DNA from: an uncultured Methanosarcinales archaeon
GTDB lineage: Archaea > Nanobdellota > Nanobdellia > Woesearchaeales > JAGVZT01
Direction: 5' to 3'
Assembly (NCBI GenBank): GCA_964419615.1
Contig: CAYQPU010000004.1
Span: forward strand, 1-60,927
Length of the DNA stretch: 60,927 bases
A program made the translations under genes and the position numbers. Within the stretch, counting starts at the first letter, position 1. Every line of letters begins with the position of its first letter. Below the pieces are notes generated by a model. The model worked only from the letters and a program-made list of their open reading frames with translations. It was not told the DNA's origin and did no database searches. Positions 15,359 to 21,147 of this stretch are shown in pieces.

Positions 15359-17408
15359 CTCCAGACCTCTTTTTCTTACCAGTATCAATATTTAAAACCT
15401 GTTCTGTCCTGCTCTTATCCCTATAAATTGTAATCCCTTTACTTCCCAATTTATACGAAAGTAAATAGACTTTTTTTACATCTTTTATTTTGGCATCATG
15501 TGGAAAATTAACAGTTTTTGAAACAGCATTATCAGTATGAGTTTGAAAAGCAGCTTGAATCTTAACATGCCATTCAGGTGTAATATCATGGGCAGTAACA
15601 AAAACTCTTTTAATGTCCTCTGGAAAATCCATATCAGCAATTGTTCCTTTTTCAGCCACTTTTCTCATAACTTCACCACTATACAAATTTTTTTTTCTAA
15701 GCTCCTCTTCAAATCTTTTGTTAATAACAATCATCTCAAGCTCAGCTTTACCATCACTTCGATTATAAGATTTATTAGTATAAGCAAGGGCAAACAAAGG
15801 TTCAATACCTCCATTACAATCAGCAATCAAAGACAAAGTACCAGTAGGAGCAATTGTGGTTATTGTAGCATTCCTCATATGTTTAAATCCGTTCTTGTCC
15901 CACATACTACCTGCAAAATTAGGAAATGAACCTCTCTTCTCTCCAAGCTGTTCTGAAGCCTCTCTTCCCTTATCAGAAATAAACTTAATTAACTTCTCTG
16001 CTAACTTCACAGCTTCATTACTATTATATGGAATCCCAAGTTTAATCAACATATCTGAAAATCCCATAACTCCTAAACCTATCTTCCTGTTTGACAAAGT
16101 AACCTCTTCAATCTCTTTTATTGGATACTTGTTCATCTCAATTACATTATCCAGAAAATGAACTGCAATTTGTACTGTCTCTTTTAACTTGTCCCAATCA
16201 ACTGTCCACTTCTCTTCAAACATCAGCATCTTTGATAAATTGATTGAGCCAAGATTACATGACTCAAACGGAAGCAAAGGTTGCTCACCACAAGGATTAG
16301 TAGATTCAATCTTTCCAACATGAGGAGTAGGATTATCCATATTCATTCTATCTAAAAACACAATCCCTGGTTCACCAGTTCTCCAAGCATGTTCTGCAAT
16401 AGTATCAAAAACAAGCTTTGCAGATATGCTCTTAACTCTTTTATTATCTCGAGGATTAATTAAGCTAAACTCTTCATCCTTAGAAAGAGCATCCATAAAC
16501 TTTTTAGTTAATCCCACCGAAATATTAAAACTTGTCAGAGAAACACCATCATCTTTTGCAGTAATAAAATCAAGAATTTGAGGATGATGTGCAGGCAAAA
16601 TACCCATCATCCCATATGCTCTAAAACCACTATGGCTAACCTCCTTTGCAACAGTATCAAACACTTTCATAAATGATAAAGGTCCACCCGCAGTATTAAC
16701 AGTCTGACTAACATAATCTCCACTTGGTCTCAAATGACCAAAATTAAAACCAACTCCTCCTCCTTTTTGACAAAGAATTGCAGTATATTTAACAGCATCA
16801 AAAATTGAAATCATAGAATCCTGTATTGGCAGCACAAAACAAGCAGATAATTGCTGAGTCTTTCGGCCAGCGTTTCTGAGGGTTGGTGCATTTGGCAAGA
16901 AAGCCAAACTACACATTACATTGTAAAACTTTTCTTTTGCTGCTTTTGGATCTTTCCCATGCTTTATATCACCATTGGCTACATTCTCTGCCACTCTTAA
17001 AAACAAATCACCAACAGATTCAATTGCATTGCCTTCTTCATCTTTTTCCAAGAATTTTTTCTTTAGAACCTTTGCAGCATTCAAAGATAGTTTTAATTCA
17101 TCTTTAACACCAAGCAAAGATTTTTTATGTCTTAATTTATTTCTTTGCTCTCTATAAAGAATATACGACTTAGCAATCTTACTATGCCCTGAATCCATCA
17201 AAACTTTTTCAACTGTATCATGAACTTGATTAACAGTTGCTATCTCACCATTAAATTTTTCCAGTTTTTTAGTAACTTGATCACTTAACTTTTTTGCAAG
17301 CTTTGGATTAGGGTCTCCAACAGAATCTGAAGCTTTGAAAATTGCTCTAACGATTTTTCCCTGATCAAAGTCTACAACTGATCCCTCTCTCTTCTTGATC
17401 TTCTTCAT
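15348..17408 (-). CDS. nrdJ: Class II (AdoCbl-dependent) ribonucleotide reductase with ATP-cone; paralog A (third in operon)
   Basis: N-terminal ATP-cone (KKREG..VDFD..KI), [44 protein letters not shown]. Confidence 0.95.
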
Positions 17409-19102: not shown

Positions 19103-21147
19103 TTTTCTTTTTTTTTTGCAAGATTAAGTACTTGCTTATCCCTACTACCATATCTGTAAATTGTTGTACTCTTGCAGCCAGTTTCATATGCAAGTACAAA
19201 AGCTTTTTTTACATCGTCTCTTGTTGCACTATTTGGGAAATTAACAGTTTTTGAAACAGCATTATCAGTATATTTTTGAAAAGCAGCTTGAATCTTAACA
19301 TGCCACTCTGGAGCAATATCAAGGGCAGTCACAAAAACTTTTTTTATGTAACTAGGTAACTCAATATCTTGGATTCCTCCTTTGGCTGCAACTTCTCTCA
19401 TCAAATCTTCATAATAAATCCCTTTGTTTTTTAATTCAAGTTCAAACTCTCGATTAACTTCAAACAACTCATCCTCTCCAAGATCTAAAAGATTCTTTCT
19501 AACATAACAAAGAGCAAACAAAGGTTCAATCCCACTTGAGCAATCAGCAATAATACTCCTATTACCTGTTGGAGCAATAGTTGTTATTGTGGCATTTCTT
19601 GGCTTAATTCCTTCTTCTTTGAAACTGCTTTTATCATAATTTGAAAAAACGCCCCTTATCTTGGCTAAATCAACAGATGCTTTCAACCCCTCATCCTTAA
19701 TGAATTTGATAATTTTTTCTGCGATCTGCACAGCTTCATCACTATCATATGGAATCTTTAATTTAATAAGCATGTCAGCAAAACCCATCACACCTAGACC
19801 AATCTTACGATTAGCCATAGAAATCTCTTTCATCTCATCCATAACATAATGGTTTCGGTCAATCAAATTATCCAAGAAATGAACTCCAATTCGAGTTATT
19901 CTTTTAATCTTGTCCCAATCAATAAGCCACTCATCATCATGTTTGAGCATTTTGGCTAAATTAATCCCACCTAAAATGCATGACTCATAGCCAAACAAAG
20001 GAACCTCTCCACAAAGATTAGTTGCTTCTAGTTTACCAATCCCTGGCAAAGTGTTGTGCCTATTTACTGCATCAAGAAAAATAATTCCTGGCTCCCCACT
20101 TTTCCAAGCGCTCTCAATAATTCTACTAAACAATTCATCAGCTTCAATCTTGTCAACAACTTTATTGTTATGAGGATTAACTAGTTCAAACATCTCATTT
20201 TTTTTAAGCTCTTGCATGAATTTATCAGTTATTCCAACAGAAATATTAAAATTGTTCAACTGATTAAAATCAAGCTTTGCTGAAATAAACTCAAAAATAT
20301 CTGGGTGATCTACATTTAAAATACCCATTACACCGCCTCTTCTGGTGCTCCCTTCATTAATTATCTCTGTTGAAAAATCAAATAATTTCATAAAACTAAC
20401 AGGACCGCTTGCAATCCCACCAGTACTTTTAATTAAATCTCCTTTTGGTCTGATACATGAAAAATTAGTACCCGTTCCGCTGCCACCTTTATGAAGAAAA
20501 GCAGTTGTTCTAAGTGTTTTGTATATTTGGTTAAGTGAATCCTTAATAGGCAGCACATAACATCCAGATAATTGTTGTAATTCTCTTCCTGCATTTCTAA
20601 GTGTTGGTGAATTTGGTAAAAATTCAAGACTTGCCATGACTTCATAAAACACTTTTTCAGATATATTTGGATCCTGATCATACTTCTTATCAGCTAGTGA
20701 AATGTCTTTTGCTACTCTTTTAAACATCTCACCTGGAGTTTCTAAAACATTTCCTTGCTCATCTCGCCTTAAGAACCTCTTTTTTAAAACTTTAGTAGCA
20801 TTTAATGAAAGCTTAAGATCATCCTTTACTCCAAGCAATTCTTTCTTCTCTCTTAAAGCTGTTCTTTCCCCCCGATATAATATATAGCTTTTTGCCACAT
20901 CAGAATGACCTGAATCCATAAGAATTTTTTCCACAATATCTTGAATCTGTTCAACAGTCGGAATTTCATCTTGTTTCCTTGCATGAAAAACAGCTTGCAC
21001 AACCTTACCTGTCATTTCTTTTGCAAGCTGACTATCAGGTTTGTGAGCACAAACAGTTGCTTTAAATATTGCACTAGAAATCTTTTCAGGATCAAAATCT
21101 ACCTCTCGACCATCTCTTTTTCTTACCTTTTGAACCTTTTTAACCAT
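19099..21147 (-). CDS. nrdJ: Class II ribonucleotide reductase with ATP-cone; paralog C (first in operon)
   Basis: ATP-cone (VRKRDG..VDFD..KI), PNSPTL, LSGCYV, TNLCGEVPL, ESCILGGINL, TIAPTG, AVSKTVN. Confidence 0.95.
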   Translation of the reverse strand: MVKKVQKVRKRDGREVDFDPEKISSAIFKATVCAHKPDSQLAKEMTGKVVQAVFHARKQDEIPTVEQIQDIVEKILMDSGHSDVAKSYILYRGERTALREKKELLGVKDDLKLSLNATKVLKKRFLRRDEQGNVLETPGEMFKRVAKDISLADKKYDQDPNISEKVFYEVMASLEFLPNSPTLRNAGRELQQLSGCYVLPIKDSLNQIYKTLRTTAFLHKGGSGTGTNFSCIRPKGDLIKSTGGIASGPVSFMKLFDFSTEIINEGSTRRGGVMGILNVDHPDIFEFISAKLDFNQLNNFNISVGITDKFMQELKKNEMFELVNPHNNKVVDKIEADELFSRIIESAWKSGEPGIIFLDAVNRHNTLPGIGKLEATNLCGEVPLFGYESCILGGINLAKMLKHDDEWLIDWDKIKRITRIGVHFLDNLIDRNHYVMDEMKEISMANRKIGLGVMGFADMLIKLKIPYDSDEAVQIAEKIIKFIKDEGLKASVDLAKIRGVFSNYDKSSFKEEGIKPRNATITTIAPTGNRSIIADCSSGIEPLFALCYVRKNLLDLGEDELFEVNREFELELKNKGIYYEDLMREVAAKGGIQDIELPSYIKKVFVTALDIAPEWHVKIQAAFQKYTDNAVSKTVNFPNSATRDDVKKAFVLAYETGCKSTTIYRYGSRDKQVLNLAKKKEK

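Follow-up and report, generated by a model that had tools for sequence, protein, structure and literature searches.

Three full-length NrdJ ribonucleotide reductases with diverged specificity loops share a conserved operon in a small clade of Woesearchaeota

The 60,927-nt stretch of Woesearchaeota DNA analysed here (contig CAYQPU010000004.1 of assembly GCA_964419615.1, positions 1-60927; hereafter the window) carries three full-length genes for class II ribonucleotide reductases (RNRs) of the NrdJ family, arranged head to tail on the minus strand in the order C, B, A and followed by a gene for an adenosyltransferase. This trio is real, conserved and statistically supported, and it is confined to a small DPANN (Woesearchaeota) clade. 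No published description of multiple diverged NrdJ genes in one operon was found in the literature searched and, set against that literature, the arrangement appears to be a previously unreported variant within a well-known family. The reading that we favour, with a probability of roughly 0.55, is that the substrate and effector preferences of an ancestral NrdJ were divided up among three active, jointly produced enzymes. The genes of the operon, and a nearby upstream element, are:

19099..21147, minus strand: NrdJ paralogue C, 682 aa, with an ATP-cone, the RNR all-alpha domain and the barrel
17405..19102, minus strand: NrdJ paralogue B, 565 aa, without an ATP-cone and without a C-terminal Cys tail
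15348..17408, minus strand: NrdJ paralogue A, 686 aa, with an ATP-cone
14741..15358, minus strand: ATP:cob(I)alamin adenosyltransferase (CobA/BtuR type)
21188..21196, minus strand: TATA-like TTTATAAAT, 40 nt upstream of the C ATG, in the 115-nt spacer that follows a VWA gene

The C/B and B/A junctions are both formed by ATGA overlaps, and the CobA gene begins with an ATG that lies ahead of the stop codon of A, giving an overlap of 11 nt. From its resemblance to the consensus, TTTATAAAT is a possible archaeal promoter for the whole C-B-A-CobA operon.

The same operon was also found in GCA_018263355.1 (L001), on a 389-kb contig of GCA_964354685.1 (L004) and on a Logan contig (L005). In GCA_001791825.1 (L003), C, B and A are all present and the contig stops 0.45 kb past A, with no gene called there, while a further sequence (L006) matches until its contig ends within A. 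At all related loci examined that reach past NrdJ, an adenosyltransferase gene lies downstream of the NrdJ gene or genes. Together, the trio-bearing genomes represent three independent Woesearchaeota lineages, and the closest named relatives are metagenome-assembled genomes (MAGs) of Candidatus Woesearchaeota. An assembly artefact was excluded, since NCBI, JGI and Logan assemblies, made independently, all contain the operon. Searches of 5.8 billion proteins returned 3-5 clusters of true orthologues per paralogue and no intermediate forms, implying that the trio-bearing clade is small. When metagenome contigs were searched with a degenerate DNA pattern matching loop 2 of the A type, the only match was L012, which comes from the same organism as L003 and adds no lineage; a scan of genome contigs with A peptides specific to the window recovered only ordinary NrdJ at 47-49% identity, and was uninformative.

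All three products belong to the same enzyme family. The RNR all-alpha domain (PF00317) and the ten-stranded barrel (PF02867) were detected in A, B and C, which scored 652.1, 644.9 and 653.5 bits, respectively, against the equivalog model for adenosylcobalamin (AdoCbl)-dependent ribonucleoside-diphosphate reductases (TIGR02504; cut-off 399.95). Against the RTPR model for the monomeric nucleoside triphosphate (NTP) reductase (TIGR02505), all three gave 59.8-76.4 bits and the cut-off of 340 was not reached. With C as the query, the top match among solved structures was the NrdJ of Thermotoga maritima (E about 1e-117), which, together with the coupled CobA gene, lends indirect support to AdoCbl as the putative radical generator of A, B and C. 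Each gene covers the whole barrel, and the three proteins can be aligned with one another end to end. A split arrangement of the NrdJa/NrdJb kind was therefore ruled out, each gene encoding a complete barrel.

To place the three proteins in context, they were aligned, together with their orthologues, with 291 related full-length NrdJ proteins gathered in three protein searches. Residues are given in T. maritima numbering from a HMMER alignment, in which D141, K158 and R171 precede a loop 1 ending at G186-P187 and a loop 2 that reads K202-Q203-G-S-R206-R207-R208-G-A-L-M212. The catalytic residues C134, N320, C322, E324 and C333 are retained in every copy and every lineage, and the motifs N-x-C-G-E, LS(A/G)C and ESC are likewise conserved throughout. 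So too are the latch arginine R207 (E. coli R298), present in 100% of relatives, and the effector anchors D141 and R171. At the position of K158, C has Lys or Arg, A has Gln (as do 28% of relatives) and B has Ser or Ala. Because the radical and redox catalytic set has been kept, all three copies are most likely active reductases.

It is above all in the segment that runs from the GGG turn through loop 1 and helix B to the end of loop 2, here called the specificity block, and in C also around the catalytic cysteines, that the copies part from their relatives. The positions concerned are:

20296..20481, minus strand: specificity block of C (aa 223-284)
18572..18757, minus strand: specificity block of B (aa 116-177)
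16575..16760, minus strand: specificity block of A (aa 217-278; GGG turn, loop 1, helix B, loop 2)
20401-20427, minus strand: C, loop 1 STGGIASGP
20326-20358, minus strand: C, loop 2 NEGSTRRGGVM
18677-18703, minus strand: B, loop 1 NVEGVAAGP
18602-18634, minus strand: B, loop 2
16680-16706, minus strand: A, loop 1 QTVNTAGGP
16605-16637, minus strand: A, loop 2 (aa 258-268)
20551..20571, minus strand: C, LSGCYVL at the first redox cysteine
19966..20019, minus strand: C, catalytic finger-loop region, NLCGE ... ESCILGG
20005-20019, minus strand: C, NLCGE
19966-19980, minus strand: C, CILGG
16887..16889, minus strand: A, Ala174 codon in PNAPT

The original prediction, made from the DNA letters, had quoted loop peptides for all three copies; each was found where it had been placed, and the stretches align to loops 1 and 2 of the T. 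maritima enzyme. Its canonical form of loop 2 (QGGxRRGAxM) is likewise right for the 291 relatives, in which the loop reads K (100%), Q (87%), G (100%), G (99%), R/K/T, R (100%), R (99%), G (100%), A (100%), N/M and M (99%). Loop 1 in the same proteins takes the form S-T-x-G-x-A-S-G-P, with T at 98%, G and S at 100%, and the closing G and P.

All three copies have lost the loop 2 lysine: the K202 equivalent is Ser in A, Met in B and Asn in C, in every lineage. The equivalent of Q203 is His or Asn in A, Gln in B and Glu in C, so that the glutamine survives in B only. Across lineages, loop 2 follows S-[HN]-[SK]-G-[FW]-R-[AS]-Y-G-M-M in A, M-Q-G-[SR]-K-R-H-G-A-N-[MI] in B and N-E-G-S-T-R-R-G-G-[VI]-M in C. 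That of A is the most divergent: further changes (G to K/S, R to F/W, R to A/S, G to Y and A to G) have removed two of the three arginines and brought in two aromatic residues. B carries an R to H change. In loop 1, A has Asn at a Gly that is 100% invariant in relatives, and the invariant Thr and Ser are missing from B, where the central part of the loop varies among orthologues; across loop 1 and the start of helix B, the changes in B are T to I/V, S to A, S to H, F to Y and M to I. Only in C is loop 1 canonical.

Changes outside the specificity block also distinguish the copies. Relatives read TNPCGE...ESCNLGS in the catalytic stretch, with the P, N and S each at 99-100%. In C, P is replaced by L beside the thiyl cysteine, N by I and S by G beside the second redox cysteine (positions 99-100% invariant), and A by G and F by Y beside the first redox cysteine (positions 100% invariant). 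The original prediction had C alone changing its catalytic loop while A and B keep NPCGE/CNLGS; this is what is seen in the window, although in the L003/L004 lineage A reads NVCGE, so that the claim does not carry over to every lineage. Only in A is the Ser of PNSPT, 100% invariant in relatives and equivalent to T. maritima Ser91, replaced by Ala; in T. maritima this serine hydrogen-bonds the substrate phosphates (PMC4728125 Table 4). In addition, all A orthologues read LGSKG in place of LGCKG (window 15441-15443, aa 656), having lost a cysteine that is 99% conserved in relatives and has no equivalent in T. maritima.

We then asked how far such changes concentrate in the specificity block. Columns were taken as invariant if conserved in at least 97% of relatives, which gave 171 columns, 30 of them within the 62-column block. 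Departures from these that are fixed in all orthologues number 14 in A, 13 in B and 16 in C. Against the background of 30/171, 9/14 in A and 9/13 in B fall inside the block (Fisher p = 5.5e-5 and 2.2e-5), as do 5/16 in C (p = 0.12), where many of the departures outside the block flank the catalytic cysteines.

The pattern of conservation points the same way. Orthologues are 65-82% identical and paralogues 49-57%. Between paralogues the block is 35-48% identical, compared with 51-56% for the remainder of the protein, whereas within a paralogue, across the three lineages, it is 66-81% identical, compared with 61-63%. Pairs of ordinary NrdJ proteins that are about 60% identical elsewhere reach 80% within the block. 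What is ordinarily the most conserved part of the protein is thus the part that differs most between the copies, yet it is conserved within each, and so bears the signature of functional divergence and not of drift. The loop 2 sequence of each paralogue is for the most part kept across the three lineages, as is loop 1 in A and C; the condition set for refuting the original prediction, loop changes that orthologues do not share, was checked and did not hold. Synonymous sites are near or past saturation between lineages. For all three genes, the ratio of nonsynonymous to synonymous substitution rates (dN/dS) was 0.08-0.10 between the window and L001 and 0.11-0.18 between L003 and L004; for A and B it was 0.07-0.13 between the near-identical L001 and L005. 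In all comparisons where it could be estimated, the ratio was 0.07-0.18. Pseudogene decay was excluded by these low ratios together with intact reading frames.

Other loci served as a control and as a guide to origin. A 706-kb archaeal contig from JGI (L011) carries two adjacent NrdJ genes (P0034 and P0103; 6001-12631) followed by a class III NrdD. Both products have ATP-cones, and loop 1, loop 2 and the catalytic motifs are canonical and the same in the two, which implies that duplication alone does not yield the pattern seen in the trio. In another Woesearchaeota MAG (L013, 1945-6094), a gene for a bacterial-type NrdR repressor, one canonical NrdJ, CobA, a P-loop kinase-like gene and a dCMP deaminase gene lie together, and this genome has in common with L004 genes for dCMP deaminase, ferredoxin, a DUF1858 protein, a metallophosphoesterase and RtcB; a Micrarchaeia genome (L014) likewise has a single NrdJ-CobA locus. 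The shared surroundings and the NrdJ-CobA loci indicate that the trio occupies the place of a single NrdJ in relatives. No NrdR gene was seen beside the trio in the trio-bearing lineages.

Neighbour-joining trees built on 559 core columns recovered each paralogue clade with 100% bootstrap support and placed A and C as sisters (97-99%), also when the specificity block was left out. On these trees A and C are duplicates; B would have arisen by an earlier duplication or have been acquired separately, with loss of its ATP-cone. The trio lies at distances of 0.56-0.72 from its relatives, compared with a median of 0.46-0.49 among the relatives themselves.

The copies also differ in their terminal domains. 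The ATP-cones (PF03477) of A and C, at 77.5 and 83.5 bits, keep nearly all conserved positions, and none was found in B:

17139..17402, minus strand: ATP-cone of A
20860..21129, minus strand: ATP-cone of C

At the other end, the C-terminal tail of 272/291 relatives (93%) carries at least two cysteines, which belong to a TSCPD domain or form a CxxC-type pair. No lineage has such cysteines in B or C, and A ends in KCATCD in L003/L004 only, the window copies all being tail-less. A hidden Markov model (HMM) built from TSCPD tails gave no significant match to a stand-alone TSCPD or Cys-tail protein in a six-frame translation of the window, the best being an IscU open reading frame (E 0.41). Just downstream of the RNR-CobA operon, on the minus strand, lie genes for a helix-turn-helix (HTH) regulator, an IscU/NifU_N scaffold and a small ferredoxin (12870-13823), and the same three follow the operon directly in L004 (16815-17785). 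Long C-termini of class II RNRs have been reported to include an IscU-like domain. It is conceivable that a reductant acts in trans on the tail-less NrdJs. Tail-less class II RNRs exist as a minority and may use small-molecule reductants (bioRxiv 10.1101/2022.04.23.489257).

How might such an operon have come about? We propose that a single canonical NrdJ was duplicated into three paralogues, now old, that would be co-transcribed and translationally coupled. The GGG turn, loop 1, helix B and loop 2 would have diverged between the copies and then been re-fixed within each, and in C the shell around the catalytic cysteines would have been altered as well. The ancestral substrate and effector preferences would in this way have come to be divided among A, B and C, produced together. 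That the loop changes alter specificity is an inference from the roles of these positions in T. maritima, E. coli and yeast. The side chains of T. maritima K202 and Q203 point toward GDP and toward CDP/UDP (PMC3267527), and in E. coli Q294A selectively loses pyrimidine reduction, while R298A is essentially inactive with all substrates (PMC4728125); the original prediction's account of E. coli Q294 and R298 agrees with the latter source. Of the three, B looks the least dependent on effectors, and C has what looks like the most canonical effector-binding loop 1.

Several observations weigh against this division of preferences. Recognition at loop 2 is mostly through main-chain atoms (PMC3267527), so that side-chain changes need not shift specificity. 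The effector anchors and the ATP-cones are retained, and ordinary allostery may somehow persist. The monophyly of A, B and C together has bootstrap support of 25-60%, which makes a separate origin of B possible. The window copies have no C-terminal Cys pair to re-reduce the active site, leaving their route of turnover puzzling, and the three independent lineages limit the power of the conservation tests.

The same facts temper the original suggestion that hard-wired specialisation has replaced allostery. The retained catalytic set, latch arginine, anchors and ATP-cones point to working, nucleotide-binding reductases and count against a simple loss of allostery; with D141 and R171 in all copies and ATP-cones in A and C, the strong form of the suggestion is weakened. 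A relaxed loop 1 is seen in B only, which has also lost the equivalent of K158 and the ATP-cone. We would treat as less likely than not a bolder reading, in which this clade has given up the otherwise near-universal single, allosterically switched RNR for three co-translated subunits with fixed or re-wired preferences, possibly forming mixed dimers with non-equivalent specificity sites.

The alternative that survives best, a version of the favoured reading that specifies the oligomeric state and that we hold only tentatively, is that the copies form obligate mixed dimers, such as C with A and C with B, in which the specificity sites that span the interface would be non-equivalent: C would give the canonical effector-binding loop 1, and its partner would give its own loop 2 and active site. 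Heterodimers in which C supplies the effector site had also been suggested in the original prediction. Only C has kept every invariant residue of loop 1, and in B the central part of that loop varies even between orthologues. The window, L001, L005 and L006 all retain the translational coupling, but in compact genomes such coupling is common and need not mean that the products assemble, and the GGG turn and loop 2 of C are altered too. The tail of class I RNRs can act on a neighbouring subunit, and in L003/L004 just A bears a CxxC tail; this argument is not general, as the copies in the window's lineage are all tail-less. Dedicated homodimers and mixed dimers would both be compatible with the canonical loop 1 of C, the relaxed loop 1 of B and the coupling.

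That the three are instead isoenzymes for particular conditions or modes of regulation, with an unchanged pattern of specificity, seems unlikely. What would then set the copies apart is the control of overall activity, the reductant or the preferred cobamide, and the loop changes would have begun as tolerated drift and become fixed later. In keeping with this, B has no ATP-cone, the usual Cys tail is missing from the copies, recognition of the effector base is mostly through the main chain (PMC3267527), and many organisms keep several RNRs for different conditions. A single coupled operon, however, makes differential expression unlikely, the changes cluster in the specificity block instead of being scattered along the protein and strike positions that are 99-100% invariant among the 291 relatives, and the tandem pair of L011 shows simple duplicates keeping their loops.

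Less likely still is that at least one copy acts on a non-standard substrate, either NTPs in place of nucleoside diphosphates (NDPs) or modified or damaged nucleotides. A alone has the Ser91 to Ala change, C alone is altered at the flanks of all three catalytic cysteines, and genes for NUDIX, SurE, dCMP deaminase, OGG and EndoIII proteins lie nearby. Against this, the ribose-binding N320 and E324 and the latch arginine are retained, and there is no positive evidence for any particular alternative substrate. The use of NTPs by some copies had been raised in the original prediction; the scores are those of NDP-type NrdJ enzymes and far below the RTPR cut-off, and the sole hint in its favour is the change at Ser91 in A. 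Finally, it is very improbable that one copy is a non-catalytic pseudoenzyme acting as a structural or regulatory partner, as Rnr4 does in yeast, or that the copies are decaying duplicates in a reduced genome, since, although the trio evolves faster than ordinary NrdJ (0.56-0.72 versus a median of 0.46-0.49), catalytic residues are intact in every copy and lineage, dN/dS is 0.07-0.18, and all reading frames are intact in independent assemblies.

The genes around the operon are archaeal and cellular in character, and include those for PCNA, deoxyhypusine and diphthamide synthesis and a Hjc-like resolvase. Directly upstream of C, on the same strand, are genes for a ChlI/MoxR-type AAA ATPase and a VWA-domain protein (21263-23426, minus strand), a pair that is kept in L001, L005 and L006, is absent from L003/L004, and resembles chelatase I/D or CobS/CobT-like pairs. 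On the far side of the operon, a region concerned with the supply and sanitation of deoxynucleoside triphosphates (dNTPs; 9545-12738) carries dCMP deaminase, NUDIX hydrolase and SurE genes on the minus strand and genes for OGG-like and EndoIII-like glycosylases on the plus strand. A thioredoxin-reductase-like gene is found at 6965-7891 (338.7 bits, just below the TIGR01292 cut-off of 343.45). A gene for a GTPase of the CobW/HypB/UreG metallochaperone family (29246-30253) and one for a eukaryotic-type Ser/Thr protein kinase of 464 aa (42267-43661) both lie on the minus strand. Further away, at 44442-55927, genes follow in the order ThiF (E1-like), a JAB-domain protein, two proteins with no family match, a NUDIX protein, a glutamine-dependent nicotinamide adenine dinucleotide (NAD) synthetase, another protein without a match, nicotinate phosphoribosyltransferase, two more proteins with no family match and an NrtR-like regulator with NUDIX and winged HTH domains; together these look like a cluster for NAD salvage to which a ubiquitin-like conjugation pair is attached. 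When the whole window was compared with Rfam, nothing reached the gathering score: no tRNA, rRNA or riboswitch was found, including a cobalamin riboswitch near the operon.

Allosteric control of specificity within a single enzyme is regarded as near-universal among RNRs, and a review of the subject names only some herpesvirus exceptions (PMC3267527). The trio, with copies that differ at the loop 1 and loop 2 positions which carry this control, would offer a natural, conserved three-gene experiment on how loop sequence codes for substrate choice. It would bear on whether a balanced dNTP supply can be achieved by division of labour instead of allosteric cross-talk, it raises the matter of how a class II RNR lacking the C-terminal cysteine tail regains its reduced state, and it bears on the management of DNA precursors in host-dependent, small-genome DPANN archaea, the organisms least able to afford extra genes.

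Comparison with known systems sets the trio apart from each of them in a different way. T. maritima NrdJ (PDB 1XJE/1XJK and related entries) shares with it the fold, the family, the catalytic residues, R207, D141, R171 and the layout of loop 1, helix B and loop 2. It is, however, one enzyme for four substrates, with K202 and Q203 present; the trio consists of three genes, none with the Lys and only B with the Gln, the window copies have no C-terminal Cys domain, A has lost two loop 2 arginines and Ser91, and the cysteine flanks of C are altered. The tandem NrdJ genes of L011 resemble the trio in being adjacent, full-length and furnished with ATP-cones, and differ from it in their canonical loops. 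At the single loci of L013 and L014 an adenosyltransferase gene directly follows NrdJ, as in the trio, yet there is one gene with canonical loops and a CxxC tail (with NrdR in L013) in place of three diverged genes. Duplicated RNR subunits able to form mixed complexes are known from yeast, as Rnr1/Rnr3 and the Rnr2/Rnr4 heterodimer. These are class I enzymes, in which Rnr4 lacks cofactor ligands and Rnr1 and Rnr3 have the same loop 2, whereas in the trio every copy looks catalytic, and it is exactly the specificity loops that set them apart. Pseudomonas aeruginosa NrdJa/NrdJb, like the trio, forms a class II RNR from more than one adjacent gene (PMC3267527; bioRxiv 10.1101/2022.04.23.489257), although there one barrel is made in two pieces, while each gene of the trio encodes a complete barrel. 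Herpesvirus class I RNRs lack specificity regulation, and loop 2 mutants of the yeast and E. coli enzymes shift substrate preference and dNTP pools (PMC3267527, PMC4728125); these are viral or engineered single enzymes, whereas the trio is a conserved cellular set of three genes.

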